Positions 1 to 24,803 of a stretch of 24,803 nucleotides of DNA are shown in pieces (the stretch's first letter is position 1; every line of letters starts with the position of its first letter). The notes under the pieces were generated by a model. The model saw only the letters and a list, made by a program, of their open reading frames with translations. It was not told the DNA's origin and made no database searches. The DNA lies in NCBI GenBank assembly GCA_015661205.1, contig JACVXV010000025.1, positions 1 through 24,803 of the forward strand. Reading direction: 5' to 3'. Both the position numbers and the translations under genes were made by a program. Source of the DNA: Candidatus Brocadiaceae bacterium. GTDB taxonomy: Bacteria; Planctomycetota; Brocadiia; Brocadiales; Brocadiaceae.

Positions 1-108
1 CTCTTATGCCTAAAATAAACCCTGGGGTCTGGGGCAAAGCCCCATCCTTTAGTAGCTTATTTTAAATTTGAAAATTCCAATTCACGGTGAACCAACACAG
101 AACAGTCC

Positions 109-834
109 ATGCCCGACGGCGGGATAATCAAATTGTCCGCTGAAAACGTTACCGTCGATGCCGAAAGTAACGTCCCCATAATGCAGGGGAAATACGTTAA
201 AATAACGGTTGCCGATACGGGCGTGGGCATTCCGGAACAACACCTCACCAAGATATTCGACCCCTATTTTACCACGAAAGAAGGCGGAAGCGGGCTGGGG
301 CTTGCCGTGGTGTATTCCGTTATTAAAAAACACGCCGGCTACCTTTCCGTGGAGTCGAAGGCGGGCGTTGGAACCATGTTCTATATCTATCTTCCGGCGT
401 CAAACGAAGAAGCTATTCCCACAAAGTCCATTGACAACAAACCCATCTTCGGGAAGGGAAGAATCCTGATTATGGACGACGAAGAACTTATCAGAGACGT
501 ATGCGGAAGGATGTTGGCCAAATTGGGATATGAGGTAGGGTATGCCCTGGATGGGCAAGAGGCCATTGATTTATACAAGAAAGAAAAAGACGCCGGACAT
601 CCCTTCAACGCGATCATTATGGACCTGACAATTCCCGGAGGAATGGGAGGAAAAGAGGCCATTAAGAAACTCCACGAGATTGACCCGAAGGTGAAGGCCA
701 TCGTTTCCAGCGGCTACTCCGAAGACGCAGCAATGTCCGATTTCGGAAAATCGGGATTTAAGGCCGTCATTGCAAAACCCTACCGAATCACCGATCTCAG
801 CGAAACCGTGCATCAGGTATTGAGTGAGGGGTAA
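109..834 (+). CDS. 5'-truncated hybrid sensor kinase remnant: distal part of HATPase_c fused to a CheY-like receiver domain
   Basis: The ORF opens right after an in-frame TGA (85-87). The first residues, MPDGGIIKLSAEN, correspond to the segment that normally follows the N-box of GHKL kinases. G1 (VADTGVGI) and G2 (GGSGLGLAV) boxes are present. No DHp/H-box or N-box is encoded upstream in any frame. Receiver motifs: ILIMDDEE, IIMDLTIPGGMGG, IAKP. Confidence 0.75.
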   Translation: MPDGGIIKLSAENVTVDAESNVPIMQGKYVKITVADTGVGIPEQHLTKIFDPYFTTKEGGSGLGLAVVYSVIKKHAGYLSVESKAGVGTMFYIYLPASNEEAIPTKSIDNKPIFGKGRILIMDDEELIRDVCGRMLAKLGYEVGYALDGQEAIDLYKKEKDAGHPFNAIIMDLTIPGGMGGKEAIKKLHEIDPKVKAIVSSGYSEDAAMSDFGKSGFKAVIAKPYRITDLSETVHQVLSEG

Positions 835-890
835 TGGTGGGGATTTAATTATGCAGTTTTTTATAAGGTAAGATTGGGAGGGCCATTCCA

Positions 891-1034
891 ATGCCGGTAA
901 TCGCAAAACGGGTTAACAGACTTGAACATATCGTAGAAGATTTTGTTGCCAGCGTTGGCGTCGAATATAACAAGCTTTGCAATTCTCAGATGCGCAGGGA
1001 AAATGGGATTTCTGGTGCTTTCGGTCGGGGATGA
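891..1034 (+). CDS. possible small ORF (47 aa), unknown function
   Basis: The ATG at 891 is preceded by TGGGAGGG (875-882) at about 8 nt spacing. It is below the ORF-track length cutoff and I recognise no family. A G4 run at 1027-1030 separates it from a second short frame that ends at 1083. Confidence 0.2.
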   Translation: MPVIAKRVNRLEHIVEDFVASVGVEYNKLCNSQMRRENGISGAFGRG

Positions 1035-1090
1035 AATAATGGAAGTGAAGAATCCCAAGGGATTCAAACCGAAGGAGTGGTAACTTTAGC

Positions 1091-1340
1091 AAAAAAAACA
1101 AGGTATCTTTTTTTGTAATAATTTAGTTTTTTGAAAAAACCCTGAAAAAGCTCCGGTAGGAGCGGTATATTAATAGAATAAAGAAGCTACACCAATGCTA
1201 AGCTCCAGAGGAGCGGCATAGAAGGCGCGTAAATCATATATCGCTCCTCTGGAGCTTTATTATCGTGTTTGGTGTTTTAGCTATTAATATTTCACCCCTC
1301 CGGGGTTATTTTTCAAAAAACGAAAATGTTACCTTTTTTT
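1091..1340. repeat. nested composite palindrome (REP/MITE-like), about 250 nt
   Basis: Perfect 16-bp inner stem at 1200-1215 / 1242-1257 (AAGCTCCAGAGGAGCG) with a 26-nt loop. ATATTAATAG at 1167-1176 pairs with 1281-1290. A 13-nt perfect inverted repeat GTTTTTTGAAAAA lies at 1126-1138 / 1309-1321. The outer arms are A-run+AGGTA(T/A)C at 1091-1107 and 1328-1340. Confidence 0.8.
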
Positions 1341-1396
1341 AATTCATTGTGTCTTTGTGTGATTACTTCTCTTATTGATAGAACCGATAAAACAAC

Positions 1397-1813
1397 ATGG
1401 ATAACAACACAAAAAATCAAAATGAAGCCCTGTCCTGGTTTCAAGAAGGATTGAGGTTTGAATGCCGGCGGTGCGGCAGGTGTTGCAGGGGCGAACCTGG
1501 CGCCGTGTGGGTTAACAATAGTGAGATGGGCGATATCGCCTCTTTTCTCGGTATTACCCAGGCTGCATTTGCAAAAAACTATGTGAAGAGTATTAACGGC
1601 CGGTTAAGTCTCTTGGAACATGGAAACGGCGTGTGTGTGATGTACGACGGGGGCTGCAAGATATACGGCGTCAGGCCGGGACAGTGCAGGTCATTCCCCT
1701 TCTGGACGTCAAATCTGGAGAACCGTGAGGCTTGGGAAGAGTTGCAAAATACCTGTCCGGGATCCGGCAAAGGGAGGTTACATACAACGGCAGACATAAC
1801 GCCGTTGCTGTAG
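1397..1813 (+). CDS. YkgJ-family cysteine-cluster protein (CxxCxxCC, putative Zn/Fe-S binding, PF03692-like)
   Basis: CRRCGRCCRG motif near the N-terminus, and a distal GCKIYGVRPGQCRSFPFW motif typical of the family. ATG start; 138 aa. Confidence 0.8.
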   Translation: MDNNTKNQNEALSWFQEGLRFECRRCGRCCRGEPGAVWVNNSEMGDIASFLGITQAAFAKNYVKSINGRLSLLEHGNGVCVMYDGGCKIYGVRPGQCRSFPFWTSNLENREAWEELQNTCPGSGKGRLHTTADITPLL

Positions 1814-1902
1814 CTCAAACCTTCAGGTTTGATGGACGTTGCACTCGGTATGAGTGCAAGCATTTTACGTGTGGCTTCCAGCGTGACATGCAATGCCGGA
1901 GT

Positions 1903-1925
1903 CCATCAGGGCTGAAGCCCTGAGC
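1903..1925. repeat. 23-nt GC hairpin element, copy 1 (CCATCAGGGCTGAAGCCCTGAGC)
   Basis: Identical 23-mer at 8895-8917. It contains a 7-bp stem TCAGGGC/GCCCTGA with loop TGAA. It sits between the two YkgJ paralogs. Confidence 0.85.
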
Positions 1926-1951
1926 CACATAAATATTTTGGATTTGCGCAA

Positions 1952-2386
1952 ATGAAATACGTTTCAGAACTAAACCTTGACGCCGGGTTGACGGCCATAT
2001 ACCGGCAACTGGAAAATGAACTGGCGCAATTAAATCCCGGTTGTAATGGCTGCGGGACGTGCTGCAATTTCGGCGACTTTGACCACGTCCTTTATGCGAG
2101 CGGCGTAGAAATTGATTTTATCGTCAAGCACGCACACGTCCCCGACTTTGCCGTTTCAGACAATATATGCCCCTTCCTGAAAGACAACAACTGCTCTATT
2201 CGTGAGTTTCGAGCGCTGGGATGCCGTGTCTTTTACTGCAATCCCCACTATCAGGAAGTTTCTCATGAAGTGTACGAAAAATATTACCGGATGATAAAGG
2301 AACTCTACAACAAACACGCCATACCCTGGAAATATCAACCATTCCTCAACCAATTGAAAGAAGCGCCACGTAAACGGTTACCGTGA
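1952..2386 (+). CDS. YkgJ-family cysteine-cluster protein, second paralog
   Basis: CNGCGTCCNF (CxxCxxCC) plus distal CPFLKDNNCSIREFRALGCRVFYC. 144 aa, ATG start. Confidence 0.8.
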   Translation: MKYVSELNLDAGLTAIYRQLENELAQLNPGCNGCGTCCNFGDFDHVLYASGVEIDFIVKHAHVPDFAVSDNICPFLKDNNCSIREFRALGCRVFYCNPHYQEVSHEVYEKYYRMIKELYNKHAIPWKYQPFLNQLKEAPRKRLP

Positions 2387-2624
2387 ACCCTGAAAGAACG
2401 AATTTCCAGCGAAACGATATTTGCCATATATCGTGTTGGCTTGAGCGCCATGGTAATGGTTAATTTTGCGTTAGGCTTTCTTACAATAACTGTGATAAAA
2501 TACTGACCTTATTTCAAATAGCAGACCCGGCATAATGGTGTCCTATGAGTAAAATAGCCGCAATTGCAAATGGACTAAAGGTCTTCATAATTTTACGCTG
2601 CCAAAGTTTTATTTAAAATCTATT

Positions 2625-5486
2625 ATGAACCCCCTGGAACGAGTAAAAGCTACGTTACGATGTGAGAGGACTGACCGCATCCCGGTTATTCCCGAGGTGG
2701 CTGCGGTTACCGCAAGGTTACGGGGTAAAAACGTCAGAGAGTACGTAAGCAACGGTGAAGTCCTTGCCGAATGCCAACTGGCCGCACAGGAGACATTCCA
2801 GTATGACGCGGTAATTGCCTTTGCAGACCTTTGCGTCGAGGCTGAGGCCATTGGCTGTGAACTGGTATTTCCTGCCGATAATTATCCACACGTTAAACGG
2901 CCTGCCATACAATCCATCAATGGACTGAGCGCCCTTTCTGTGCCAAACCCCCTCAAAGACGGCAGGATGCCGGAACTCATCAAGGCAGTGCATATCCTGA
3001 AGGATAAATCTCTCGGCAGGATACCGGTTGTAGCCCACGCGCTTGGCCCCCTTACGATTGCCTCCCGTATTATGGATCTAGAGAAAATGCTCTATATGAT
3101 TGTTGATGAGCCGGATAATTTCAAGAAACTGCTGGCTTTTACCCTGGAGGTAGCCCTTGTTTTCATAAGGCATCTGTTAGCGGCAGGCGCTGATTGTATT
3201 ATTATGTTTAATCCTTCGGCCTCTCCCGCCGTGCTCCCCGCAAAAATATTCAAGGAATTTGAACTTCCAAACCTGAAAAAGATATTTTCTTTTATCAAGG
3301 AATTCAATCCTGAGGCCATTACTTGGTATAGCGTGGCCGGGGCAGTTCAGGACATTATCAAAGAATTGGAAGACGTAAACATCGACATTATGACCATCGA
3401 TTATCTCGTTCCGCTGGACGTCGCTTTCGGTATTTCCTCTTCCCTGTGTTTTAACGGCAACATAAAATCCATCTCCTTTGTCAATGAAAAGCCGAAGGAG
3501 ATTTTTTCCCAATCAACGGCGCTTTTACAAACCTCGCTGGAACGTGGAAGATTTATCCTGGGTTCCGGGTGTGAGGTGCCACCGAACGCCAGGCTGGATA
3601 CTATTCAGGCGCTTGTCAATGCATCCATCGACGTCTCAAGGAATTTTAAGGTGTACGGGAATGGGGTAGAAGCAACGAAGTGCGTTTCGATTTTTCCCTT
3701 TCAAAGGAAGGTTCACGTGCATGAAGGGATCGATGTTATTGAGGCTGCCGCCCAGGCCGGTGTTCAAATCCACAATTTGTGCAATAAGGCCGGGGTATGC
3801 GGTTCCTGTATTATTCAAGTGGGGAAGGGGGTTACCGGTGATTACTCAAGAAAGGAGTCGATAGTTTTAACTCCTGAGCAAAAAGAGAAAAATTACCGGT
3901 TTGCCTGTAAGGTTAAAGTGGCGTCCGATATGGAAATTTTCGTTCCGCGGGAATCGAGAATAAAAAATGAATATCGGGTTTACCAGAAAGACCATGCTCA
4001 GGAATCAATTGGCGAGCAGTACGGCTTAAATCCCTCTATCTGTGCAATCAAGATGCCGCATAGGCAAAAAACCGATGATAAGCACACGGATTTAGAAATA
4101 ATTCAGAAGGCTATCGGCAATCACACCGAATTTTTCCACAGTGAGCTTAGAAAATTGCCCGATATGGTAAGACATGACAAGGAATTCTATTGTATCATTG
4201 ACACAGAAAAGGGAAGGGCGCTTGACCTGTGCCATTCCCGGGAAATACTGGGCGTGGCTGTGGATATCGGAACAACCACCATCGCAATATACCTCCATGA
4301 CCTGGAGACCGGAAAGATAATCACCTCCGGCTCTCTTCTGAACCCGCAGTTTCAATTTGGCGACAATATTATGACCAGGGCGGAACGGTATCTCTGTGGG
4401 ACAGCAGAGCGGACGGAACTCCGGAACAGTCTTATCAAAGGAATTAACACCCTTCTCTTGAAAATTGCCCAGGACAAGGGTATCTCTTACAGCCATATCT
4501 ATAAAATGGTTGTCGTTGGGAACTCGGTTATGCACCATATATTCCTGGACATGGATTTGCAGTATCTGGTCAGGGCGCCTTTTACCCCGGTCTTTTCAAG
4601 CGCATACACGTACGTCAACAAGGATAAGGGCGGGGGGCAGAAGCTTACTATGAACGAAAATGGGTTGGTTGTGTGTCCTCCTCTCCTGAATGGCTTTGTG
4701 GGGTCAGACGCGGTTGCCGGGATACTGGCACCCAGCCTTTACCGGTCGGAAGAACCCGTTCTCTTGGTGGACCTTGGCACAAATGGGGAGATCGTCCTGG
4801 GTAATAAAGAAAAAATCCTCGTCACTTCGGCTGCCGCGGGGCCGGCGTTTGAGCGATTTTCCGCTATGTCCGGGAAACTTGCGGCCTCCGGCGCTATTTA
4901 CCGCGTTGACATAGACGAAGATTTTCACGTTATCTACAAGACCTTTGACAACAAAAAACCAACGGGTTTGTGCGGAAGCGCCATTGTTGATACCATTGCC
5001 GCGTTTTTGCGTTTGGGTATCATAGACAGGCGGGGACGTTTTGTCAGAAACCCACGCTGCAACAGCCTGAGAGACAGCGGGTATATCCTGGTTCCTCGGC
5101 AGGACACGGCAATCTTTCAACCCGTGGTGATAACTGCCCGTGACATAGAAGAGGTTCAAAAGGCCAAAGGGGGAATAATGGCGGGGATTGCTATTATCAT
5201 GAGGGAATACGGAATTACCCCCAAAGGGCTTGGCAAGGTGGTTTTAACCGGCGGATTCGGCATGAATATCAACGTGGGCAATGCCATCCGCATTGGTTTG
5301 ATCCCGGAAGTTCCCGTGGAAAAGGTCGGTTTTATTTCAAATGCCGCCGGGGTTGGCGCCCGATTGTATTTGCTTTATAAGGATGCGGTAAGGGACGTGG
5401 AAGAGATTGCCGGAAAGATCAGACATATCAACGTGGCAAACGACGCTGCATTTAACAACATTTTCATAGATGCCATGCTGTTTTGA
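2625..5486 (+). CDS. fusion protein: UroD/MtaA-family methyltransferase-like barrel + [2Fe-2S] ferredoxin domain + RACo-type ASKHA ATPase (corrinoid reductive activator-like)
   Basis: One uninterrupted 953-aa ORF. The N-terminal ~345 aa show the UroD/MtaA pattern (RIPVIPEV, FADLCVEAEAIGC, ILGSGCEVPPNA). C386-x5-C392-x2-C395-x32-C428 (CNKAGVCGSC...FAC) matches RACo [2Fe-2S] spacing. ASKHA motifs: LGVAVDIGTTT (aa 542-), LLVDLGTNGEIVLG, TSAAAGPAFE. Confidence 0.85.
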   Translation: MNPLERVKATLRCERTDRIPVIPEVAAVTARLRGKNVREYVSNGEVLAECQLAAQETFQYDAVIAFADLCVEAEAIGCELVFPADNYPHVKRPAIQSINGLSALSVPNPLKDGRMPELIKAVHILKDKSLGRIPVVAHALGPLTIASRIMDLEKMLYMIVDEPDNFKKLLAFTLEVALVFIRHLLAAGADCIIMFNPSASPAVLPAKIFKEFELPNLKKIFSFIKEFNPEAITWYSVAGAVQDIIKELEDVNIDIMTIDYLVPLDVAFGISSSLCFNGNIKSISFVNEKPKEIFSQSTALLQTSLERGRFILGSGCEVPPNARLDTIQALVNASIDVSRNFKVYGNGVEATKCVSIFPFQRKVHVHEGIDVIEAAAQAGVQIHNLCNKAGVCGSCIIQVGKGVTGDYSRKESIVLTPEQKEKNYRFACKVKVASDMEIFVPRESRIKNEYRVYQKDHAQESIGEQYGLNPSICAIKMPHRQKTDDKHTDLEIIQKAIGNHTEFFHSELRKLPDMVRHDKEFYCIIDTEKGRALDLCHSREILGVAVDIGTTTIAIYLHDLETGKIITSGSLLNPQFQFGDNIMTRAERYLCGTAERTELRNSLIKGINTLLLKIAQDKGISYSHIYKMVVVGNSVMHHIFLDMDLQYLVRAPFTPVFSSAYTYVNKDKGGGQKLTMNENGLVVCPPLLNGFVGSDAVAGILAPSLYRSEEPVLLVDLGTNGEIVLGNKEKILVTSAAAGPAFERFSAMSGKLAASGAIYRVDIDEDFHVIYKTFDNKKPTGLCGSAIVDTIAAFLRLGIIDRRGRFVRNPRCNSLRDSGYILVPRQDTAIFQPVVITARDIEEVQKAKGGIMAGIAIIMREYGITPKGLGKVVLTGGFGMNINVGNAIRIGLIPEVPVEKVGFISNAAGVGARLYLLYKDAVRDVEEIAGKIRHINVANDAAFNNIFIDAMLF

Positions 5487-5531
5487 ATGTCATGATAAAA
5501 CGGGAGGAATCCGATTAAAAACATACTGTTA

Positions 5532-5837
5532 TTAATTCTTTTGGCTGATAGTAACCAACATTTGGATTACCGTGCCGATCCTTTGGTTTAGCGGCCCTAT
5601 CTCTCCTTTTAACTGCCCAATTTCGTTCTTCATTTCGCTTCGCAATTGCCCAATCTCGCCTCTTACACTCCCGATATCCGCATCAATTTTTTGCACCAGA
5701 TATCTGAAATCTTCCTCCTGACGTTTTTTCAGTTCACCTATTTGGGTTGTTATTTCTTCCGTGCGGTCATTGACTACCTGGTAGATTAAATCTAGTGTCA
5801 CCTTTTTTATAGCTGACGTAAAAAATTCTTTTACCAT
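5532..5837 (-). CDS. hypothetical coiled-coil protein (about 101 aa)
   Basis: The preferred start is the internal ATG at 5837 (MVKEFF...), preceded by AGGAGGG about 9 nt upstream on the minus strand. The sequence has heptad-like repeats (EIGQLRSE / EIGQLKGE / EIGPLNQ). No family recognised. Confidence 0.55.
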   Translation of the reverse strand: MVKEFFTSAIKKVTLDLIYQVVNDRTEEITTQIGELKKRQEEDFRYLVQKIDADIGSVRGEIGQLRSEMKNEIGQLKGEIGPLNQRIGTVIQMLVTISQKN

Positions 5838-5947
5838 GGGGAAATACCCTCCTGTAAACATGAAGTTTTTAGCAATACATTTAGCGTATTTTAGCAAGTC
5901 ATTGGTAAATGTACAAGAATTATCTCTCCGGAATCAGGCCATTTTCC

Positions 5948-5977
5948 TTGACACCTATATAACCAATGGGTTATATT
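5948..5977 (+). promoter_or_regulatory. putative sigma70-type promoter of the toxin-antitoxin operon, possibly giving a leaderless mRNA
   Basis: TTGACA (5948-5953), an 18-nt spacer, then TATATT (5972-5977). The toxin ATG at 5983 lies about 6 nt after the -10. The spacer contains a short inverted repeat, ATAACC-n4-GGTTAT. Confidence 0.4.
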
Positions 5978-5982
5978 CGAAT

Positions 5983-6288
5983 ATGGTAATCAAATTACTA
6001 AGGCAGGTTAGTGCTTATATAGATACATTACCCAAAGAGCAGCGTGCCATAATATATGCTGTCTTGGAAGATATAAAACAATACGGACTGCAAGCCCCAT
6101 TGGTATCCATGAGGCAGATTAAAGGTAAATTATGGGAGGTCAAGATTTCTCAGATTAGAATATTCTATGTCGTTATCGAGAAAAACACCATGGTTCTCCT
6201 CCATGTCTATAAAAAGCAGAGCCAAAGGGCGCCGCAACATGAAATTGAAACTGCGCTCCGTCGTATGAAGGATGTACTTGAAAATTAA
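5983..6288 (+). CDS. type II toxin, RelE/ParE superfamily, Gp49/HigB-like (PF05973-like)
   Basis: The pattern LPKEQRAIIYAVLEDIKQYGL...GKLWEVKISQIRIFYVVIEKNTMVLLHVYKKQSQRAPQHEIETA matches the Gp49-like toxin consensus (G.LyElR...yRi.Y....ivll..f.KK.qk.P..ei..A). The start is chosen at the internal ATG (M50 of the track ORF). Confidence 0.8.
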   Translation: MVIKLLRQVSAYIDTLPKEQRAIIYAVLEDIKQYGLQAPLVSMRQIKGKLWEVKISQIRIFYVVIEKNTMVLLHVYKKQSQRAPQHEIETALRRMKDVLEN

Positions 6289-6307
6289 AAAGAAGGGGAT
6301 TGCTTCT

Positions 6308-6640
6308 ATGAAAACGCATGCCAACAGGGACGATATTTATCACCTGAAAGATACTATTGACAAACATGAAAAAGACCCTGAATTTAAAATCCTGCTGGAC
6401 AAAGCCAGATTAAGGGTTGCGATTGCAAGACAAATTAAGATAGCCAGAGAAGAAGCAGGACTCTCACAATCAGCGCTCGCAGACGCTCTCGGCATAAGCC
6501 AGCCCATGATAGGCCGTCTTGAGGGATTAAAAGACTATCGCCTGCCCAGTATTGAATTACTGACAAAAATTGCCTCTATAACAAAAAAGAAGCTGGTAGT
6601 AAATCAGCCGGGGTTTCACCTGGAATTGACATGTATGTAG
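6308..6640 (+). CDS. XRE-family helix-turn-helix antitoxin (HigA-like)
   Basis: The HTH segment is LSQSALADALGISQPMIGRLEG. The ATG at 6308 is preceded by GAAGGGGA. It lies 19 nt after the toxin stop, giving a toxin-first (HigBA) order. Confidence 0.75.
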   Translation: MKTHANRDDIYHLKDTIDKHEKDPEFKILLDKARLRVAIARQIKIAREEAGLSQSALADALGISQPMIGRLEGLKDYRLPSIELLTKIASITKKKLVVNQPGFHLELTCM

Positions 6641-6678: not shown

Positions 6679-8382
6679 TTACTCGCGTCTGTGCGTATTA
6701 ATACGCATTTGAAGTGATTTTAACTTTCGGTGTATGGCAAATTCCGATTCAGCCTCAATGTGCATACCCTTTTTTTGGTAAAGGAATCCCAAGTTTTTAT
6801 GGATGTTGGCGTCATCGGCATCAATATCCAGCGCCTTTTTGAATGCGTTGATGGCGTCATCCACCTTGCCGATGCCCTGATAAACAACGGCAAGATTATA
6901 ATAGGCGTCAACGTAAGCAGGGTTTATCTTTGTCGCTTTTTCCCAACAAGCAACAGCCGACAAATACATATTTTTTTTCGCGTAAGTGTTACCCAACTTA
7001 TAAAATATATCGGAACGGTCAGGGTAGAGTTCGGTAGTTCGCTCCCATGTTTGTATTGCCTTATCCAACAAGCCCTTTGAATAATAAATATCCGCAAGAC
7101 CGGTTAGCGCTCCATAATCATCAGGGTTAATTTTGACAGCCTTGTTCCAGCACGAAATGGCCTTACTCTCGTTCCCCAGATTAAAATATGCAACCCCCAG
7201 ATTATAGTAGGCGTCCGCCTTTTGAGGGTTTAGCTCTATCGCCTTCTTCCAGGCTTCGATAGATTGCTCCCTCTCCCCCTTAACGGCGTAAAGCTCCCCA
7301 CAGTTATAATACGCATCCGCATAATCCGGTTTAAAGCTGATAGCCCATCGGTAGTACGACAACGCCTCGGATTCCCTGTCATTTTCCGCATAAACCTCAC
7401 CCAGGGCAAAATAGGCCTCGGCCATTTTAGGATTTATTTTAAGCGCTTGTTGCAAGGAAAAGACCACATCCTGGAATTTATCGCCTTCACGGTAAACCAT
7501 CCCCAGATTATAGTAAGCCTCCACAAAGTTAGGCGACAACGTTACGGCCTTTTTGAGGGCATCTGCGGCATCCTTCAAATCACCCTTTGCATAATAGGCG
7601 ATACCGAGGTTGTTAAATGCTTCCGCATAGTTTTTATTATACTGCACGGCCAGTTGATGTTCGGCGATTGAATTTTCAAAATCACCGCGCCCATAATACA
7701 ACATACCGAGAAAATTATGCGCCTCCGCGTCATCTTTTTTTAAGTTGATTACCTGCCTGAATTCCCTTTCTGCGTTTTCAGGCAAATTCTTTTTAAAGTA
7801 CACAACCCCCAGCATGAAGTGAACGTCTGCATCTTTCGGATCGAGGCTAACGGCCTTTTCCAAAAAGGCAGCGGATTCGTTCAACTTGTCTTTTTCATAA
7901 GAAAGGACGCCCAGATAGTAATTGGTATCCACCTTTAACGGATTTAGCGCAAGGCTTTCTTTGTAGGCAGAAAAAGACTCCGAAAGCGACTTTAGGTATT
8001 TGTAGGTCAGTCCAAGGTCGCTATAAGCTTCCGCCTTTTCCTCTACCCGGTCAGGGTTATAAAATGATATTGCCGCGAGAAATTCGGGGATGGCTTCCTG
8101 CAGTTTATCCAGCTCATAGTAAGCCTTCCCCAAGTAGTGGTGCAGTTCTGCGTCGCCTCTTGCCCTTTCAGAGGCAATAATTAACTCCTCAACGGCGTCT
8201 TCCAGCATACCCTTTTTATAATACGAAATCCCCTGCGCCTTATTGCTCATGGGCGACTGGGAGTCGTCAGCGCCGCTTTGAGTCCCTTTTTTCATTACCC
8301 ATTTCGCCGCCAGCGCGGTTTGGCATATCAGCAGCGCTGGTATGAGGAATAAAACTATATACATTTGTTTTTTCATTATCAT
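6679..8382 (-). CDS. exported tetratricopeptide-repeat (TPR) protein
   Basis: N-terminal signal-like segment MIMKKQMYIVLFLIPALLICQTALAAKW. About 14-15 consecutive 34-aa TPR units follow, with recurrent A.YNLG..Y...G....A...%.KAL..P motifs. Confidence 0.85.
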   Translation of the reverse strand: MIMKKQMYIVLFLIPALLICQTALAAKWVMKKGTQSGADDSQSPMSNKAQGISYYKKGMLEDAVEELIIASERARGDAELHHYLGKAYYELDKLQEAIPEFLAAISFYNPDRVEEKAEAYSDLGLTYKYLKSLSESFSAYKESLALNPLKVDTNYYLGVLSYEKDKLNESAAFLEKAVSLDPKDADVHFMLGVVYFKKNLPENAEREFRQVINLKKDDAEAHNFLGMLYYGRGDFENSIAEHQLAVQYNKNYAEAFNNLGIAYYAKGDLKDAADALKKAVTLSPNFVEAYYNLGMVYREGDKFQDVVFSLQQALKINPKMAEAYFALGEVYAENDRESEALSYYRWAISFKPDYADAYYNCGELYAVKGEREQSIEAWKKAIELNPQKADAYYNLGVAYFNLGNESKAISCWNKAVKINPDDYGALTGLADIYYSKGLLDKAIQTWERTTELYPDRSDIFYKLGNTYAKKNMYLSAVACWEKATKINPAYVDAYYNLAVVYQGIGKVDDAINAFKKALDIDADDANIHKNLGFLYQKKGMHIEAESEFAIHRKLKSLQMRINTHRRE

Positions 8383-17909: not shown

Positions 17910-18932
17910 CTATCGGAATATCCTCTTCCCCGCCTTGCGTCTCATCGACATAAAAAGCTCTCGTATCATAAGCCATTTGTCCTCAAGCGCCCACAGGTGA
18001 AAGGGCAGGACGCAACCGCATCGCAGGCAGTCCGCCTGGGGACCCATCATGCAGGGTTTTTTCACCTGTCCATGGGGGTCAAGGCAAAAGGCCACCTTTT
18101 TAAAGAGACAGTTTCTCGTAATTTCTTTACACTTATCCGACTTCATCAGCTTCAGCACCAGACTCGGCACACCGATAAAGTCCCCATACTTCTCCTCCTT
18201 CAGTGCAAGCAGTTTATCCAAAATCTCATCCCGTAACTGCCAGCCGGGCCAAAGGTCGTCATTTTTTAACCCTTTTATCGGGGTGTGTATCTGAAAGAGA
18301 CATCCCTTTACCCCTACTTCCTTCCACTCTTCTAAAAAACGCTCAACCTCCTGATAATTCAGCTTGTTAATGACCATTGACACCATTATCTTAAGTTCAG
18401 GCCTGTTGGCGTGCTTCTTAATTTTATCATGACAACCCTTGCCCCGTATGGCGTCATGCGTGTCTTTCAGGCCATCAACAGAGATGTAGAAGTTGACGTC
18501 TGGCCAAGGGGGAAGTTCTATGGTGCCGTTTGTCGCAACGACGTTTGACTTAAAATATTTCATCCCGCGCTCTATCAAATCCTTCCGAAGCAACGGTTCA
18601 CCGCCAATCCAGGAGCATTGATAAAACGGAAAGTCCGTATCCTTCAAACTCTCCAGCTTTTCTATCCACTCATGGTCGCTAAGTTCCGGTTTTTCCTCGT
18701 AATCATGCGCGTAAAAGTAGCAGTGCTTGCACCGTAGGTTACAACGGTTAGTGATGTCTATCGCCCCAATGGCCCCATAGGGTTTGCCAAAAAGGTCAAA
18801 CCTGCCCAAGTCGTAGAGCTTGAAGAAAAACTTGGTGCGTTCCTTTCCGATCTTTTTACTGGAATAATCGAATAACTTGTCTCTAAACGTCCTTTTCGGA
18901 CCAAAGGTTCTTTCGGTGGTAGTGGCAATCAT
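17910..18932 (-). CDS. radical SAM enzyme with Cys-rich C-terminal (SPASM/twitch-like) extension
   Basis: IDITNRCNLRCKHCYF (C64-x3-C68-x2-C71), GGEPLL, and seven Cys in the last ~80 aa (CKEITRNC...FCLD...PCMMGPQADCLRCGC). ATGA start/stop overlap with the upstream gene. Confidence 0.85.
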   Translation of the reverse strand: MIATTTERTFGPKRTFRDKLFDYSSKKIGKERTKFFFKLYDLGRFDLFGKPYGAIGAIDITNRCNLRCKHCYFYAHDYEEKPELSDHEWIEKLESLKDTDFPFYQCSWIGGEPLLRKDLIERGMKYFKSNVVATNGTIELPPWPDVNFYISVDGLKDTHDAIRGKGCHDKIKKHANRPELKIMVSMVINKLNYQEVERFLEEWKEVGVKGCLFQIHTPIKGLKNDDLWPGWQLRDEILDKLLALKEEKYGDFIGVPSLVLKLMKSDKCKEITRNCLFKKVAFCLDPHGQVKKPCMMGPQADCLRCGCVLPFHLWALEDKWLMIRELFMSMRRKAGKRIFR

Positions 18933-19501
18933 TTTATATCTGAAAAGTCAATCTTGTACCGCTTTTCGTCCTTTCGTGTCTTGACTATGATGGTGGTGTT
19001 TGACCTGGGATTGATTTTATCTTGCAGAAAGGTAGCGTCAATGCTTTGCTTATAATCCTTGCGCTTCATCCCCAACTCAGTTTTTTGAGGCAGGGTATTA
19101 TTCGTCCCCTGCGCCAAAACAATTTGCACGTCCTCCGGAGTCTTTGCCTCTTCCTCGGAAACGATCACAATCACTTTAAACGTTGTTAGTTCATCGATTT
19201 CCTTTAGTTTCTCTTCCGTAACGGTTTTGTCCTTTAAGTTCATCATGGCGGAAATGACTACCGCATGTATATACTTGCTCATGACGATCCCCCCTTCACC
19301 ACCGGGATAACCGCCAAAGCAAGCCTGTTTTACCACCGTGCTTCCAAAGACGTCGGTTCCTTTGTACTTAGCGCCGTATTCAGCGGCCTCTTTCATTTGT
19401 TCCGGCGTCAATTTGGTATCAAACGCGCCTGACATCGCCGGCAATCCCGCTAATGCCACCACTATGCAGGCCGGGATGGTCCACCATTTTGCCCATTTCA
19501 T
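18929..19501 (-). CDS. exported hypothetical protein (190 aa)
   Basis: Signal-like N-terminus MKWAKWWTIPACIVVALAGLPAMSGAF. RBS GGGGGGA upstream. Translationally coupled (ATGA) to the radical SAM gene. No family recognised. Confidence 0.65.
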   Translation of the reverse strand: MKWAKWWTIPACIVVALAGLPAMSGAFDTKLTPEQMKEAAEYGAKYKGTDVFGSTVVKQACFGGYPGGEGGIVMSKYIHAVVISAMMNLKDKTVTEEKLKEIDELTTFKVIVIVSEEEAKTPEDVQIVLAQGTNNTLPQKTELGMKRKDYKQSIDATFLQDKINPRSNTTIIVKTRKDEKRYKIDFSDIK

Positions 19502-19538
19502 AATTGATTTCCCCCCCCTAATGACTATGCTAAACTAA

Positions 19539-19697
19539 GTCTTCGGCGACTTCCACTTGTAGAACGAAGTGGTACTTCGTTCTTTAACCGTGTCTTTTCA
19601 AAAGAGAGCGTATAACCTCTTCGTTCTACAACAGGCCAGAAGGTCAGAAAGCACATAGCCAGGGGAATAAAATAATATACAAGCCCTGAAGGGGCGA
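19539..19697. repeat. composite REP-like module, copy 2 (with an internal ~30-nt duplication/insertion)
   Basis: GTCTTCGGCGACTT..., GTAGAACGAAGTGGTACTTCGTTCT, then CTCTTCGTTCTACAACAGGCCAGAAGGTCAGAAAG...ATAGCCAGGGG...AAGCCCTGAAGGGGCGA. It is collinear with 8500-8627. Confidence 0.85.
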
Positions 19698-19875
19698 AAT
19701 AGCTTAGCCCAAGGCAACGCCCTGGGAATATTACAAAAACCACCAAGCCCTGAAAGGGTGAAATACGGAATGGGACATTTTTCACACCTTATGTCACCCC
19801 TTCAGGGCTTGTTTTGCTCATAATGCTAAACCCAGGGCGTTGCCCTGGGCTATCTTATTGCGCCCCTTTGGGGCT
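19681..19875. repeat. 195-nt mirror-symmetric composite palindrome built from three GC-hairpin modules per arm
   Basis: 19681-19696 pairs with 19861-19875. 19707-19726 pairs with 19831-19850 (CCCAGGGCGTTGCCCTGGG type). 19746-19760 pairs with 19795-19809. The symmetry centre is near 19778. Confidence 0.85.
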
Positions 19876-20004
19876 ATTATTGCAAATACAATCAGACCGA
19901 TTTTATGCGTTTTTCGTTTCTTAACTTAACACCTATGGGCTTCCCCCCCGCTATATCCTGTCGGCCTGCGAAGCGCCTCACCAAGTATTTAAAGCAGGCG
20001 GAAC

Positions 20005-20361
20005 CTACTCACCGCACATCTTAAGCTCTTTACCGGTAATTGCGCTGATCTTTTTACCGAGATTTTTCATTTCCTTAAGACCACCGCGACTTGAGGACTC
20101 GCCAACCTCATCCACAACCACCTTTTTCCCATCGGTCAGGTGGAGCAATACTAAATATCTCATATAGTTACTTGGCGCTGAATCCAGTTCTTCCGTTGCA
20201 ACCTCTACCTTTTTTATCCTGGAAAACGGGAAACTTTCCTCATCGTCAAAAAAGAGCGTCCTTCTCACACCGGTTGTTACCTGTTCAGCCTTTCCATCAA
20301 TGGTAATTAGCTTGAAAAAGGAACTCAATACAAGTTTATTTGTATCTTTACTCTTCACCAT
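20005..20361 (-). CDS. hypothetical protein (118 aa)
   Basis: ATG preceded by GGGAGGA with good spacing. No recognisable motifs. Confidence 0.6.
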   Translation of the reverse strand: MVKSKDTNKLVLSSFFKLITIDGKAEQVTTGVRRTLFFDDEESFPFSRIKKVEVATEELDSAPSNYMRYLVLLHLTDGKKVVVDEVGESSSRGGLKEMKNLGKKISAITGKELKMCGE

Positions 20362-20541
20362 TTTTTTCCTCCCTTTTCAATTTCAACAAAGACATAACCA
20401 TGGACAAATTACGTTGATTTTAGTTATACAACTACCGGAACAAACCCTTATCGTAAAGGGTCACACAAAAGCCGCTTAACATACCACCTTCCAAACACAC
20501 GTCGGTCTATTGCAAGTACTAAGGAATATACCACATACGGT

Positions 20542-21474
20542 TTAGATAGTCAAAGCTATTATTCCGACCATTACTTTACTTTCTCTCCTTGCTTTGAAGT
20601 ACTTTTGGGCGCTCCCCTGATTAACAGATATCTCCAGATACCCCGTGCTGCCAATGATAGCCAGCGGCCTTCCCTTGCCTACGTCCATATATGAGGCGCA
20701 TAAACCGATAATTTTTTCTTTCCCGATAACTGTTTCGAATTTCAAGTTTCGAGTCTCAAGTTTCGGATTTCGGATTCCGAGTTTCGAGTTTTGGATTTCG
20801 GATTTCGGGTTTCGGGTTTCGGGATTATTTTTTGTTGGACCATACAGGAATTGGAGGTGGTCTCTGGTGATATTGGTGATAAGGTTGCCAAACCGGTCGA
20901 TGTGCATCACCTCGCCGACCAGTTGGCCGGACTTCCCCATCACGGGAGCGGAAATGTTCAACCGTTCCAGCCGGTCAATCTTGCCACCCAGACGCTGCAA
21001 TTTTACGCCTAGCGACATATATGCCGCCAGGGGGGCAAAGACGTCCCTTCCATGAAAGGTGTTGCTGGTTGACGGCAGGAAATACCTGGTGTTTGTTGCC
21101 CTGACTATGCGACGCGGCGACTCTTGCTGAATAACAAAACTAAGGATGCCATTATCCGGAACAATAAAAACACAATCCCGGAATTCAACACATACAATAT
21201 CTCTCTTACTCCCGACACCGGGATCGACAACCGCCACATGGATCGTCCCCTTGGGGAAATACTGATAGGCGGTAGAAAGGAGGTAGGCGCCGCCAAAAAC
21301 GTCCTGGGGCTGGACGTCGTGGCAGATATCAATAACCGTTGCGGAAGGATTGATACTGGCGACAACACCCTTCATAATGCCGATATATGCGTCCTGATAT
21401 CCAAAATCCGTCAGGAGGGTAATCACCGGTACGCGGTGTAACGCCTTCTGTTCTTTTGCACGCTGTATTTTCAC
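20542..21474 (-). CDS. SAM hydrolase / SAM hydroxide adenosyltransferase family protein (DUF62, fluorinase/chlorinase-like fold) with a repeat-encoded insertion
   Basis: ITLLTDFGYQDAYIGIMKGV, VVDPGVGS, HGRDVFAP, HIDRFGNLITNI and IIGSTGYLEISVNQGSA match the DUF62 family. GTG start 12 nt after the upstream gene's stop. Confidence 0.85.
   Translation of the reverse strand: MKIQRAKEQKALHRVPVITLLTDFGYQDAYIGIMKGVVASINPSATVIDICHDVQPQDVFGGAYLLSTAYQYFPKGTIHVAVVDPGVGSKRDIVCVEFRDCVFIVPDNGILSFVIQQESPRRIVRATNTRYFLPSTSNTFHGRDVFAPLAAYMSLGVKLQRLGGKIDRLERLNISAPVMGKSGQLVGEVMHIDRFGNLITNITRDHLQFLYGPTKNNPETRNPKSEIQNSKLGIRNPKLETRNLKFETVIGKEKIIGLCASYMDVGKGRPLAIIGSTGYLEISVNQGSAQKYFKARRESKVMVGIIALTI
20732..20822. 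repeat. tandem heptanucleotide repeat, 13 units (plus-strand consensus RTTTCRR; coding strand YCGAAAY), inside the DUF62 CDS
   Basis: Units: GTTTCGA ATTTCAA GTTTCGA GTCTCAA GTTTCGG ATTTCGG ATTCCGA GTTTCGA GTTTTGG ATTTCGG ATTTCGG GTTTCGG GTTTCGG. They encode PETRNPK SEIQNSK LGIRNPK LETRNLK FET. Confidence 0.9.
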
Positions 21475-21486
21475 TTAAAAATGTCC

Positions 21487-22539
21487 CTACTTCTGCGTCT
21501 TGATAGCAATAATATCATCCGTGATTTTGTCAAATACGTCAACCAATTCCGGGTCAAAATGTGAGCCTTTATTCGATTGGATATACTTTACGGCATCACT
21601 CATATTCCACTGTTCTTTATATGAGCGCACAGACGTTAATGCGTCAAAGCAGTCGGCCACGGCAGCGATTCTGGCCGGCAATGGGATTTCAGCGCCTTTT
21701 AAACGGTGCGGATACCCGGCGCCATCCCACCGCTCATGGTGCGACAGCGCGATTTCTCTTGCCATATACATAAGCTGTGACGACGGATTGTCCAGCAATT
21801 TAGCCCCAATCAGCGTATGGGTCTTTATAATTTCATACTCATCCGGTTCAAGTTTACCCGGTTTCAAGAGGATGTTGTCCGGTATCCCCAGCTTCCCGAT
21901 ATCATGCATGGGGCTTGCGTTGAGCAACAAGTCCGCTTCCTGATCTGACATGCCAAACGACCTGCCGATTAATTCACACATTTTACTCATACGGATAATG
22001 TGAAGTCCGGTCTGGCTGTCTTTATATTCAGCGGCAAGACTCAGGCGGCGAATGATCTCCAACCGCGAATAGTGCAACTCCTGGGTGCGTGCCTCAACCT
22101 TTTGCTCCAAAAGGGTATTTTGATAGGCAACCTGCTTATGAAGGAATTTTGTTTCTAACATATTCTGTATCCTGATCAGCGCCTCGGTCTGGTCAAAGGG
22201 CTTTGTCAGGAAATCCTTCGCCCCTTCATGAAGCGCGCGGTAGCAGGTTTCTTTATCTTGCTGTGCGGTAAGCACGAGTATGGGCAGGTACGCGTCCTTT
22301 TTGGCTTCATTTATTTTTTCCATAACCTGGTAGCCGTTCAGATGCGGCATGTTGATGTCGAGGAGGACAATGTCCGGTTGAAAGCTTTCGTAAATACCCA
22401 TCACCTCACGGGAGTCCGTAATACCCAGCACCGAGGTATATCCGGCAATATCCAGCATTTTTTCAAGCATAGTGACATTGACCTGGGTATCATCAATGAT
22501 CAAAATTCTTGCATCCAGAACCTCTTGATTGGGTATCAT
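21487..22539 (-). CDS. response regulator with HD-GYP phosphodiesterase domain (RpfG family)
   Basis: Receiver motifs ILIIDDTQVN and VLLDINMPHLNG. HD-GYP motifs HDIGKLGIPDNILLKPGKL and HHERWDGAGYP. ATGA overlap with the upstream kinase gene. Confidence 0.9.
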   Translation of the reverse strand: MIPNQEVLDARILIIDDTQVNVTMLEKMLDIAGYTSVLGITDSREVMGIYESFQPDIVLLDINMPHLNGYQVMEKINEAKKDAYLPILVLTAQQDKETCYRALHEGAKDFLTKPFDQTEALIRIQNMLETKFLHKQVAYQNTLLEQKVEARTQELHYSRLEIIRRLSLAAEYKDSQTGLHIIRMSKMCELIGRSFGMSDQEADLLLNASPMHDIGKLGIPDNILLKPGKLEPDEYEIIKTHTLIGAKLLDNPSSQLMYMAREIALSHHERWDGAGYPHRLKGAEIPLPARIAAVADCFDALTSVRSYKEQWNMSDAVKYIQSNKGSHFDPELVDVFDKITDDIIAIKTQK

Positions 22540-24803
22540 CTTGCCGTCTCCTTCAAAACATCGTCCACTACTTGTAGAAAATGACTCACATTGATGGGCT
22601 TGGTAATATAGTTCAAAAAGCCGGCAACCTTACCCTTTTCGACATCTTTTAACATCGCATTGGCGCTTATGGCAATAACGGGAATTTTCTTCGTTTCGTC
22701 GCCATCCCGTAATATCTCTAATGCCTCATATCCGCTTATCCCCGGCAGGTTTATATCCATTATAATAATGTCAGGCCGCTTTGCCCTGGCAATCGCTATC
22801 CCTGATTCAGCATTTGCAGCGCTCAACAATTCAATTTGGGGACGACGTTTAAGGATACTCTGAACAAGCATAAGATTGGCAGGATTATCTTCTACGTAGA
22901 GTATCGTTCTGTTCTTATAATTTTTTGTCTTCTGAGACTCTTGCATCGTGGTAATATCTACCATTTCCATAACAGGTTTCTGCACCCTCTTAAAATCAAC
23001 ATAAAACATGGTGCCCTTTTCAACAACACTTTCAACGCCAATATGACCATCCATCAGCTCCACAAGACGCCTTGTAATAGTCAGGCCGATGCCCGTGCCC
23101 TCTATGTTCGTTAACTCCTTTCCAAGCCGGTTGAAGGGTTGAAACAACAGGCCAAGTTTATCCTCCGCAATACCATAGCCGGTATCCTCAACTTTTATAC
23201 GCAGCATGTCGTTGTCCCGAAGCTCGTACGACACAATTACAGAGCCATTTTTACGATTGTATTTTACCGCATTTGTCAGTAAATTCGTCATAACCTGCTT
23301 TAATCGTGTGCGGTCTGCCATGATATACACACCGCTTTGGACAAATTTGACCGTTACCGTTACACCATATTTTACTGCAATAGATTTAATAATGGCGACA
23401 ACCTCTTCAATAACGGAATCAACCAAAATGATTTCGGGTGATATGGAAAGCTTGCCCGTTTCTATGCGAGAAAGATCAAGGATGTCGTTAATAAGCTCCA
23501 GCAGATGATCTCCAGAACTTAATATCAGTTCCACCGATTGACGTTGCGTAGCCGTTAGCGGGACGTGAGGATCGTTTTTGAGTACTTGCGCAAAGCCGAG
23601 TATTGAATTCATTGGCGTCCTTAATTCATGACTCATACTTGAAAGGAATAAGGATTTTGCCTCATTTGCGCGATTTGCCTCGTCAATGGCCTTGTGGAGT
23701 TTTTCCGTCATCGTATTGAAACTGGCTGCAAGTTCACCAATTTCATCTTGGTTTTTCACTTGCACCCGCCGCCACAGTTCACCTAATACAATTTTTTGCG
23801 CTGTGCGTTTTAATTTGTTAATTGGCCGTGAAATCGATAATGAATACAGGATTCCCGCTACAACAACCAGTACAACGCAGATAGCGCTTACCATAGATAC
23901 AATCACGCCAAGCGAGGTTAACGGGGCAAACAATTCTGCCTTGTCCACTTCAGCAACCAAAAGCCATTCATATTCCGGCATATTAATAGATACACCGAAA
24001 ACCGGCACACCCCGGTAATCCGGGTATATGCCTGCCATTCCCTGCCCGGACGTTATTGCCAATTGAACGGGTTTTGTATCAACGATCAGATTCAACGGCG
24101 CATGTTCAAGAAAACGGGAAGGGGTAATCATCCTTTTTTCCCTGTTTACCAGATAGACCTCCCCGGTCGCCCCCATTTGCACATCTGTTTTCATCACGTC
24201 ATGTAAAATAGCCAAATCATAGCAGTTTATAATAATGCCAAGCTTCTCCGCACTTGCAGACCTCCGGGAGGTAAGGGGCGCCGTAATATAAATGCTGTTT
24301 TTCTTGCTAAACACGCAAAACAACGGTTGATGAACCGTGGCGTTTCCATACGAGGCCTTCATCCCATGAGTAAAAAGTGGGGTGTTGGCATAACCCTGTC
24401 CAATCCACCGTTGATTTGTCGAAGCAACAACAACGCCGATAGTATTCAGCACGGCAATATCGGAAATGTACGTGTCTAATGGTCTTTTGTATTTTGTTAA
24501 ATGTTGATTTAAGGATTTAATCAACCTATCCCTGTTGCGATTATCTTCGTTTATTTTTTCCAGCGTGTCTCTTATAAAACCATCAGAACTAAAGTCAACG
24601 ATTCGCCCCCTTTTCGCATTTAACGCGGTATGTAAATGAGTCTTTTTCGATTCAACAATCAATGACAACTTACCCACCTGATGTTCTCTCAGTGCGGTGT
24701 AACCCTTGACGCAATAAACAACCGTGATAACCGCAACAGGTATCAGCGAAAGGCTGAGGCAGAAGAAGAGCAATTTGCTTCTGATTGATTTGAACAGTAC
24801 CAA
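22536..24803 (-). CDS. hybrid sensor histidine kinase (TM - Cache-like periplasmic domain - TM - HAMP - HisKA - HATPase_c - REC); the 5' end lies at or just beyond the window edge
   Basis: N-terminal TM segment LLFFCLSLSLIPVAVITVVYCV and a second TM segment VIVSMVSAICVVLVVVAGILYSL. HAMP region RPINKLKRTAQKI...DEIGELAASFNTM. H-box SHELRTPMNSILG. N, G1 and G2 boxes NLLTNAVKY, DTGYGI, GTGIGL. C-terminal receiver ILYVEDNPAN...IIMDINLPGISG. The reading frame runs to the last base of the window and the first in-window codon is TTG. Confidence 0.88.
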   Translation of the reverse strand: MVLFKSIRSKLLFFCLSLSLIPVAVITVVYCVKGYTALREHQVGKLSLIVESKKTHLHTALNAKRGRIVDFSSDGFIRDTLEKINEDNRNRDRLIKSLNQHLTKYKRPLDTYISDIAVLNTIGVVVASTNQRWIGQGYANTPLFTHGMKASYGNATVHQPLFCVFSKKNSIYITAPLTSRRSASAEKLGIIINCYDLAILHDVMKTDVQMGATGEVYLVNREKRMITPSRFLEHAPLNLIVDTKPVQLAITSGQGMAGIYPDYRGVPVFGVSINMPEYEWLLVAEVDKAELFAPLTSLGVIVSMVSAICVVLVVVAGILYSLSISRPINKLKRTAQKIVLGELWRRVQVKNQDEIGELAASFNTMTEKLHKAIDEANRANEAKSLFLSSMSHELRTPMNSILGFAQVLKNDPHVPLTATQRQSVELILSSGDHLLELINDILDLSRIETGKLSISPEIILVDSVIEEVVAIIKSIAVKYGVTVTVKFVQSGVYIMADRTRLKQVMTNLLTNAVKYNRKNGSVIVSYELRDNDMLRIKVEDTGYGIAEDKLGLLFQPFNRLGKELTNIEGTGIGLTITRRLVELMDGHIGVESVVEKGTMFYVDFKRVQKPVMEMVDITTMQESQKTKNYKNRTILYVEDNPANLMLVQSILKRRPQIELLSAANAESGIAIARAKRPDIIIMDINLPGISGYEALEILRDGDETKKIPVIAISANAMLKDVEKGKVAGFLNYITKPINVSHFLQVVDDVLKETAR

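Follow-up and report, generated by a model that had tools for sequence, protein, structure and literature searches.

Tandem repeats with a unit length that three does not divide can drive slipped-strand phase variation, as the gain or loss of one unit shifts the reading frame. We describe such a repeat inside an enzyme gene: an array of 13 heptanucleotides in the DUF62 S-adenosylmethionine (SAM) hydrolase gene of a Candidatus Brocadiaceae bacterium (Planctomycetota), on contig JACVXV010000025.1 of assembly GCA_015661205.1. The whole 24,803-nt stretch that we analyzed is called the window. Heptamers are reported to be the commonest class of long-unit simple sequence repeats (SSRs) in most prokaryotic genomes (PMC4679880, PMC4692102). 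In neuO, the O-acetyltransferase gene of the CUS-3 prophage of E. coli K1, a pure array of 3 to 53 AAGACTC units lies at the 5′ end, and 65.6% of 64 genomes are OFF (PMC13001214). Classical SSR loci control surface, restriction-modification, or virulence functions in host-adapted pathogens; their tracts are long and pure and occupy promoters or 5′ coding regions (PMC2651432, PMC8262952, PMC11868660). The TAACTGA arrays of Beggiatoaceae contain stops in all forward frames and are mostly intergenic, just upstream of start codons (PMC4679880). At the locus described here, unit number is polymorphic among close relatives, the full-length protein obeys an n mod 3 frame rule, and one allele is OFF.

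The array and its host gene lie on the minus strand of the window:

20542..21474, minus strand: DUF62/SAM hydroxide adenosyltransferase (SAM hydrolase) gene, 310 aa, GTG start (open reading frame [ORF] list, Pfam, PDB matches, Foldseek)
20732..20822, minus strand: 13-unit heptanucleotide array (coding strand YCGAAAY), encoding residues 218 to 248 (Tandem Repeats Finder [TRF], unit parse)

TRF reports the array at periods of 7, 14, 21, and 28, with a top score of 105, and finds no comparable period-7 array elsewhere in the 24.8-kb window. A two-unit pattern has 12 overlapping matches within the array and 3 weak ones outside, a total reached by none of 100 shuffles. On the coding strand, the units are CCGAAAC, CCGAAAC, CCGAAAT, CCGAAAT, CCAAAAC, TCGAAAC, TCGGAAT, CCGAAAT, CCGAAAC, TTGAGAC, TCGAAAC, TTGAAAT, and TCGAAAC. 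An earlier reading made from the letters alone (the sequence-only reading) had called 13 heptamers over 91 nt with exactly two pairs of identical neighbors and a 7-aa periodic peptide, PETRNPK/SEIQNSK/LGIRNPK/LETRNLK/FET; TRF, the unit parse, and the translation agree on each point. Its suggestion that all 91 nt are inserted holds for most of the array, except that the last unit (TCGAAAC) codes for the E-T of an ET.IGK segment kept in most homologs, and that 91 nt amount to 30 codons plus 1 nt.

The heptad consensus of the encoded loop, P/S-E-T/I-R-N-P/S-K, is polar. The array begins at nucleotide 653 of the 933-nt coding sequence (CDS), thus within the C-terminal domain and not at the 5′ end, and is placed between the DRFGNLITNI motif and the IIGSTGYLEISVNQGSA segment. 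No more than 2 identical units stand in a row in the window, and no more than 3 to 4 in relatives; with many units degenerate, the array does not qualify as a long pure tract. The core units CCGAAAT, CCGAAAC, and TCGAAAC are stop-free in all six frames, and the array can therefore be tolerated in a coding region. No Rfam family covers it; around the DUF62 gene, no terminator-like site was found, and promoter-like sites are not in excess.

Allele DNA was taken from 13 orthologous loci (L001 to L013) in independent ENA, JGI, NCBI, and Logan assemblies. The alleles were found through protein similarity and are related by descent, and their counts are not counts of independent events. The array starts at the same CDS position in all 13 loci, after caaaaaataatc, and its length varies:

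10 units: L003, L004, and L011
13 units: the window and L005 to L009
16 units: L001
17 clean units, equal to 19 by length: L002
5 to 8 units behind a different, non-repetitive loop segment: L010 and L012/L013 (sister group)

A check for unit-number polymorphism in related strains and metagenome-assembled genomes (MAGs), proposed with the sequence-only reading, thus came out positive: 10, 13, 14, 16, and ∼19 units are present across orthologs 80 to 99% identical, and 13 and 10 units occur among proteins that are ∼95% identical. In-frame arrays of the main type, from orthologs 80 to 97% identical, have 10, 13, 16, or ∼19 units, always 1 mod 3, and ∼13 of 14 main-type arrays are in frame. The closest protein matches, labeled Candidatus Brocadiaceae or Planctomycetota, include homologs of 303, 310, 317, and 323 aa, and members of the protein cluster add more alleles of 303, 310, and 317 aa. 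The 317- and 303-aa lengths are those that the window gene would give upon simulated gain or loss of three units. Identical alleles recur across samples (L003 and L004; L005 to L009), and the most degenerate allele, that of L005 to L009, is the same in five independent samples, which fits purity-dependent slippage. A scan of metagenome contigs had no close ortholog among the matches listed.

Gains or losses of one or two units lead to a truncated protein in simulation, and the elements that decide where translation ends lie in or next to the array:

20753..20759, minus strand: unit 10 (TTGAGAC), with an in-array TGA that is read after a one-unit gain upstream (simulation; L146)
20739..20745, minus strand: unit 12 (TTGAAAT), with an in-array TGA that is read after a one-unit loss upstream (simulation)
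20545..20731, minus strand: C-terminal 62 codons, residues 249 to 310, lost or misread in out-of-frame alleles (alignment, L146 comparison)
20828..20833, minus strand: A6 homopolymer, 6 nt upstream of the array (end point of P0123 and P0129)

Adding a unit at any of units 1 to 10 of the window gene gives 241 aa ending in ...SET or ...LET; removing one at any of units 1 to 11 also gives 241 aa, ending in ...LRLET or ...PKLET. A natural protein has exactly the length predicted for the gain. P0124 (locus L146, on a 34-kb contig) is a 241-aa member of the window protein's own cluster, cluster 1, and its gene has 14 units (+7 nt) between flanks close to those of the window: 647 of 652 nt are identical on the upstream side and 356 of 367 nt on the downstream side. 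Translation ends after 241 aa at the TGA that the TTGAGAC unit contains, whereas the rest of the gene, 69 codons (LETVIGKEK...GIIALTI*), is preserved intact in the +1 frame. An alignment of 10.9 kb with the window (97.1% identity) has no coding-region indel other than the additional 7 nt, and the neighboring genes have normal lengths. On these grounds, we regard the 14-unit form as a credible natural one-unit OFF allele; it is a single clean example and a MAG consensus. Counted from the unit strings, 7 of 91 array positions differ between L146 and the window in addition to the indel, compared with 5 of 652 positions upstream of the array, which makes the turnover of the array roughly tenfold faster than that of the upstream flank.

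L146 and L010 both come from GCA_040960315.1, where the same syntenic region is present with DUF62 alleles of 308 aa (L010) and a frameshifted 241 aa (L146); the two allelic contigs indicate that this bin mixes two related populations. A second candidate OFF allele, L147 (P0127), was rejected: it has seven 1-nt deletions at 893 to 1276, a cluster that begins where the array ends and extends over the following 400 nt, and is otherwise 99.92% identical to L001. These deletions are probably a local assembly or sequencing artifact. Two truncated cluster members, P0123 and P0129, both end in ...YGQQK* just before the array, beside the A6 run, which is a possible second slippage-prone tract.

The protein is a two-domain DUF62 enzyme, and the array splits the second domain:

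20986..21423, minus strand: SAM_HAT_N, N-terminal domain, residues 18 to 163 (Pfam PF01887)
20572..20916, minus strand: SAM_HAT_C, C-terminal domain, residues 187 to 301, split by the array (Pfam PF20257; HMMER PDB match in two parts)

The SAM_HAT_N match (E = 1.3e-55) covers profile positions 1 to 145 of 145, and the SAM_HAT_C match (E = 1e-20) covers positions 1 to 83 of 84 over residues 187 to 301, with the array as an insertion. Sequence matches in the PDB (2zbu, 2wr8, MJ1651, and others) are SAM hydrolases, chlorinases, and fluorinases, and all 40 Foldseek matches with E ≤ 0.001 are DUF62, SalL, or fluorinase chains, the best being 2zbu (2.3e-20). HMMER aligns residues 18 to 205 and 253 to 297 with residues 2 to 190 and 211 to 255 of T. 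maritima 2zbu; query residues 205 to 253 thus correspond to 2zbu residues 190 to 211, which leaves the window protein with ∼27 extra residues at the array site. The array had been placed between two conserved segments joined by a short link in homologs, and the solved structures bear this out. The canonical enzymes (T. maritima 2zbu, P. horikoshii PH0463, and M. jannaschii MJ1651) share the two-domain architecture and the conserved motifs with the window protein but have ∼21 residues at the site, without a repeat, whereas the window protein has 48.

An AlphaFold2 model built on 30 homologs, the structural check proposed earlier, puts the insertion in the C-terminal domain as a low-confidence loop: residues 204 to 210 form a helix, residues 213 to 242 have pLDDT (predicted local distance difference test) values below 50 and no secondary structure, and residues 244 to 250 form a strand. 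The array peptide (residues 218 to 248) overlaps for the most part with the low-pLDDT segment. Model quality is modest, with a mean pLDDT of 66.8, which accounts for the low template modeling (TM) scores of 0.42 to 0.53 against solved homologs. That the array encodes a disordered surface loop is therefore a moderately supported prediction, and the disorder is apparent only. Beyond the loop, 15 columns are invariant among 30 aligned Brocadiaceae homologs: G257, Y262, D264, G268, P270, L271, G275, S276, L280, E281, N285, Q286, G287, A289, and F293. Invariant in the same alignment are D84, R91, and H141, which align with the PH0463 chain and may be the Asp-Arg-His residues proposed for hydroxide activation, a putative catalytic triad. 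As known for homologs, DUF62 enzymes are (R)-SAM-specific salvage hydrolases that convert SAM to adenosine and methionine, and deletion of DUF62 in two archaea gave no growth phenotype under standard conditions (bioRxiv 10.1101/2025.08.29.672840).

Outside the window's clade, the same site has other contents. In other Brocadiaceae genera (L014 to L016, 55 to 60% identity), a constant 56 residues separate the same two conserved anchor motifs, and the loop DNA keeps a weak 7-nt periodicity (e.g., CAGGAAT CGGAAGC CAGGAGT CAGAAGC). A few Brocadiaceae homologs of 267 to 268 aa (P0098, P0106, and P0115) have no insert at all. Together, the decayed 56-aa loops and the insert-free homologs mark the site as an old permissive hot spot in which the repeat has frozen in some lineages and is still active in the window's clade. 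All arrays end at GAAAC, coding for the E-T that opens the next strand; because the unit resembles the codons of this E-T and every array ends there, native sequence at this very site may have expanded into the array.

We favor, with a probability of ∼60%, the interpretation that the array is an active coding heptanucleotide microsatellite, or variable-number tandem repeat (VNTR), in a permissive loop. The repeat would be a mutational burden that the gene tolerates, with side effects that resemble switching, rather than a tuned switch. Unit number would change by slipped-strand mispairing, as the pattern and the known behavior of SSRs suggest, and purifying selection on the C-terminal segment would remove most out-of-frame alleles. 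The population would then display mostly frame-preserving length polymorphism, in 7-aa steps, within a disordered polar loop. The strong in-frame excess points to purifying selection for an intact enzyme rather than to a free-running switch, as does the impurity of the units. Occasional OFF alleles with one unit more or fewer could persist where the enzyme family is dispensable under benign conditions; the lack of a growth phenotype in the two archaeal deletions is consistent with this.

Several points weigh against this interpretation. Out-of-frame unit numbers are represented by a single clean allele, known as a MAG consensus. Retrieval by protein similarity favors intact genes, making the in-frame excess partly an effect of ascertainment, and the alleles are kin whose counts do not stand for independent events. 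Steps of three units are compatible both with single 21-nt events and with serial 7-nt events that pass through OFF intermediates. Finally, given the mean pLDDT of 66.8 and TM scores of about 0.45, the disordered surface loop has moderate support.

The alternative that survives best, although we consider it unlikely, is an adaptive contingency (phase-variation) switch, in which the array has been selected for high-frequency ON/OFF bet-hedging of the SAM hydrolase, as in neuO of E. coli K1. The heptamer does not make up a whole number of codons, close strains differ in unit number, both alternative frames meet a TGA within the array, and the natural +1-unit OFF allele keeps its downstream frame intact, so that switching would be reversible in principle; neuO, which is ON only if its unit number is divisible by 3, provides the precedent (PMC13001214). 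Thus, of the contingency switch proposed by the sequence-only reading, the mechanism and the existence of an OFF allele hold up, but switching is not the dominant behavior, since nearly all alleles are in frame. With ∼13 of 14 main-type arrays in frame, the locus stands far from the 65.6% of 64 neuO genomes that are OFF (PMC13001214). Furthermore, identical-unit runs of 2 in the window and 3 to 4 in relatives predict low slippage rates, and the tract lies in the middle of a gene, in a conserved fold, and neither at a 5′ end nor in a promoter. The product is a metabolite-salvage enzyme without a surface or restriction-modification function, and we know of no obvious fluctuating selective agent for a SAM hydrolase. 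We found no report linking anammox (anaerobic ammonium-oxidizing) bacteria and phase variation.

A bolder version of the switch, which we think less probable still, has a free-living, slow-growing chemolithoautotroph toggling its (R)-SAM salvage hydrolase stochastically, with the length alleles tuning the enzyme as well. If this were true, the switch would alter the quality of the SAM pool for methyltransferases and for the radical-SAM enzyme encoded two genes downstream, and contingency-locus biology would reach well past host-adapted pathogens and surface structures.

It is improbable that the array is a length-tuning module in which the number of heptads adjusts activity, stability, or oligomer contacts and the in-frame length alleles are adaptive. 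The discrete 7-aa length alleles (303, 310, 317, and 323 aa) would suit such a role, and a longer repeat region raises the catalytic activity of NeuO, as cited in PMC13001214. However, the loop is predicted to be unstructured, its sequence drifts freely among alleles, sister lineages function with 0 to 8 units or an unrelated loop sequence (L010, L012, and P0011), and the Brocadiaceae homologs P0098, P0106, and P0115 do without the insert.

About as improbable is a fixed, decayed insertion, an old repeat-born loop that no longer changes. The sequence-only reading had leaned toward it, arguing from the degenerate units and the two identical neighbor pairs, and the constant 56-aa loop with residual 7-nt periodicity in other Brocadiaceae genera and the most degenerate allele, the same in five samples, point the same way. 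Its repeat-born part stands, as residues 213 to 242 have pLDDT values below 50 and the link in solved homologs is short. The fixed part does not stand. Proteins ∼95% identical in the window's clade differ by 13 versus 10 units, close orthologs have 10, 13, 16, or ∼19 units, and the near-identical L146, with an upstream flank 99% identical, differs by one unit (14 units, 241 aa). An equivalent non-repetitive loop of the same length was found in the other Brocadiaceae genera only, not across the lineage.

Although repeats are error-prone in metagenome assembly, and L147, 99.92% identical to L001, has seven single-base deletions within 400 nt that look like an artifact, a short-read misassembly that creates the repeat or its copy-number differences is very improbable. 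More than 15 independent assemblies, drawn from four sources, contain the array, with identical alleles across samples (L003 and L004; L005 to L009); its length of 70 to 133 nt is below or comparable to typical read lengths; and the 10.9 kb of L146 show no coding indel besides the extra unit.

Similar heptamers are widespread. A search for the same array elsewhere in the genome, another proposed check, revealed no genome-wide family in ∼60 kb of unique sequence of the lineage. Across species-representative genomes, YCGAAAY arrays occur at no fewer than 120 loci in many phyla, intergenic as well as genic; the calls were made with a seeded caller, and the TTCGAA core is palindromic. Among the matches listed, 53 of 133 arrays lie in an open frame with at least 60 codons on both sides. 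Short arrays of 4 or 5 units (...KSEIRNPKSEI...) are in frame in MAGs of unrelated phyla (L086, L088, L090, L126, and L136, the last with two arrays), where Pfam identifies the hosts as an IleRS-type tRNA synthetase, PheT, Mfd, DnaE, and methylmalonyl-CoA mutase. The idea that YCGAAAY is a special, possibly mobile cross-phylum motif was rejected: it forms 44 stretches, as against 10, 87, and 48 for composition-matched permuted units, in a control confined to viral contigs rather than the genome collection. This suggests that heptamer arrays are generically common and enter coding loops and that the motif is not special.

Two Verrucomicrobiota MAGs have arrays at the same site of seemingly orthologous long ORFs, L077 at 6387 to 6414 (...PKSEIRNPKS GDWVLLTNGIGGMAR) and L103 at 3600 to 3634 (...KSEIRNPKSEI VLLTNGIGGMAR), which suggests an inherited in-frame heptamer insert. 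In L023, a GC-rich bacterial contig, 20 copies of TCCGAAA end a few bases before the ATG that opens an ORF; long arrays of AATGCAC (20.6 copies) and CATTCCG (14.6 copies) are also present. Together, these arrays lie at 3000 to 3142 and 5342 to 5595, and the genome appears rich in heptamer SSRs of several kinds. In L022, from a Baltic Sea metagenome, GAATGCG (4.6 copies) and AAATCCG (3.6 copies) at 2816 to 2847 and 2965 to 2989 lie directly upstream of the start codon of a distant DUF62 homolog (45% identity). L024, a 5.2-kb metagenome contig, consists throughout (1 to 5180) of ∼740 ACCCGAA heptamers, and L025 has several related heptamer arrays (AACCCTG, AAACCAT, and CCCGAAA) at 1348 to 2469 that look telomere-like; both look like satellite DNA, possibly of eukaryotic origin.

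The neighborhood of the gene is conserved within the clade. In the window (17910 to 24803), a histidine kinase gene and a response-regulator/HD-domain gene precede the DUF62 gene, with a gap of 12 nt. Downstream, conserved genes for 118-aa, 190-aa, and radical-SAM proteins are found across the clade, followed in most loci by fatty-acid synthesis genes (FA_synthesis, acyl carrier protein [ACP] synthase III, acyltransferase, ACP, and ketoacyl synthase). In other Brocadiaceae genera, the DUF62 neighbors differ and include ALAD, cold-shock, and VWA/OmpA genes. One of these loci, L014, has a bAvd-family gene and two Lcl_C-domain genes at 3940 to 6564, ∼4 to 6 kb upstream of the DUF62 gene, which could be a diversity-generating-retroelement-like arrangement.

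Two further elements were seen in these loci. An inverted pair of Rfam Acido-Lenti-1 matches lies in the stretch that separates the 190-aa gene from the 118-aa gene, a region with many indels between the window and L146:

19682..19726, minus strand: Acido-Lenti-1 (47 bits; gathering score, 37)
19831..19875, plus strand: Acido-Lenti-1 (43 bits; gathering score, 37)

L010 has the same inverted pair at a different genomic position (1866 to 1910, minus strand, and 2016 to 2060, plus strand), so the pair behaves like a small mobile element, similar to a miniature inverted-repeat transposable element (MITE), in the lineage. In L011, an element made of TTCGATA-type units with a 7-nt period is dispersed over intergenic positions (325 to 361, 489 to 530, and 6882 to 6930). 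The gap immediately before the DUF62 gene, 12 nt in the window, is 145 nt in L011 and is filled by one copy, and two further copies form an inverted pair farther upstream. The window lacks this element, and Rfam has no family for it.

SSR frame switching has been studied almost entirely in surface or restriction-modification genes of host-adapted pathogens; here, it is seen in natural populations of an uncultured anammox bacterium. A single locus in the middle of an enzyme gene displays both frame-preserving length alleles in 7-aa steps and a one-unit OFF allele, and it makes a concrete case of a non-triplet repeat that becomes a protein loop while selection on frame would filter microsatellite mutation. 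The array also offers a ready strain-level VNTR marker for groundwater anammox populations. No new mechanism is involved, and an adaptive role is unproven.

Compared with known systems, the array is a further case of SSR-mediated frame and length variation. Like the TAACTGA arrays of Beggiatoaceae, it is built of tandem 7-nt units, but it is not a member of that family, as its YCGAAAY unit is open in six frames, intragenic, and translated. With classical SSR contingency loci, such as the tetranucleotide and heptanucleotide tracts of Haemophilus influenzae, it has in common that slippage of a non-triplet unit alters expression or frame; unlike them, it resides in a metabolite-salvage enzyme of an environmental chemolithoautotroph and is known from allele sequences and not from observed switching. 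The neuO heptanucleotide VNTR is the closest precedent. Both are heptanucleotide arrays within a CDS that encode a 7-aa periodic peptide, yield full-length protein in only one n mod 3 class, vary in unit number among strains, and turn OFF upon a change of one unit. Unlike neuO, the window array has degenerate units, lies mid-gene in a conserved C-terminal domain, is in frame in nearly all alleles, and belongs to a free-living anammox bacterium and to an unrelated protein family (Pfam SAM_HAT).

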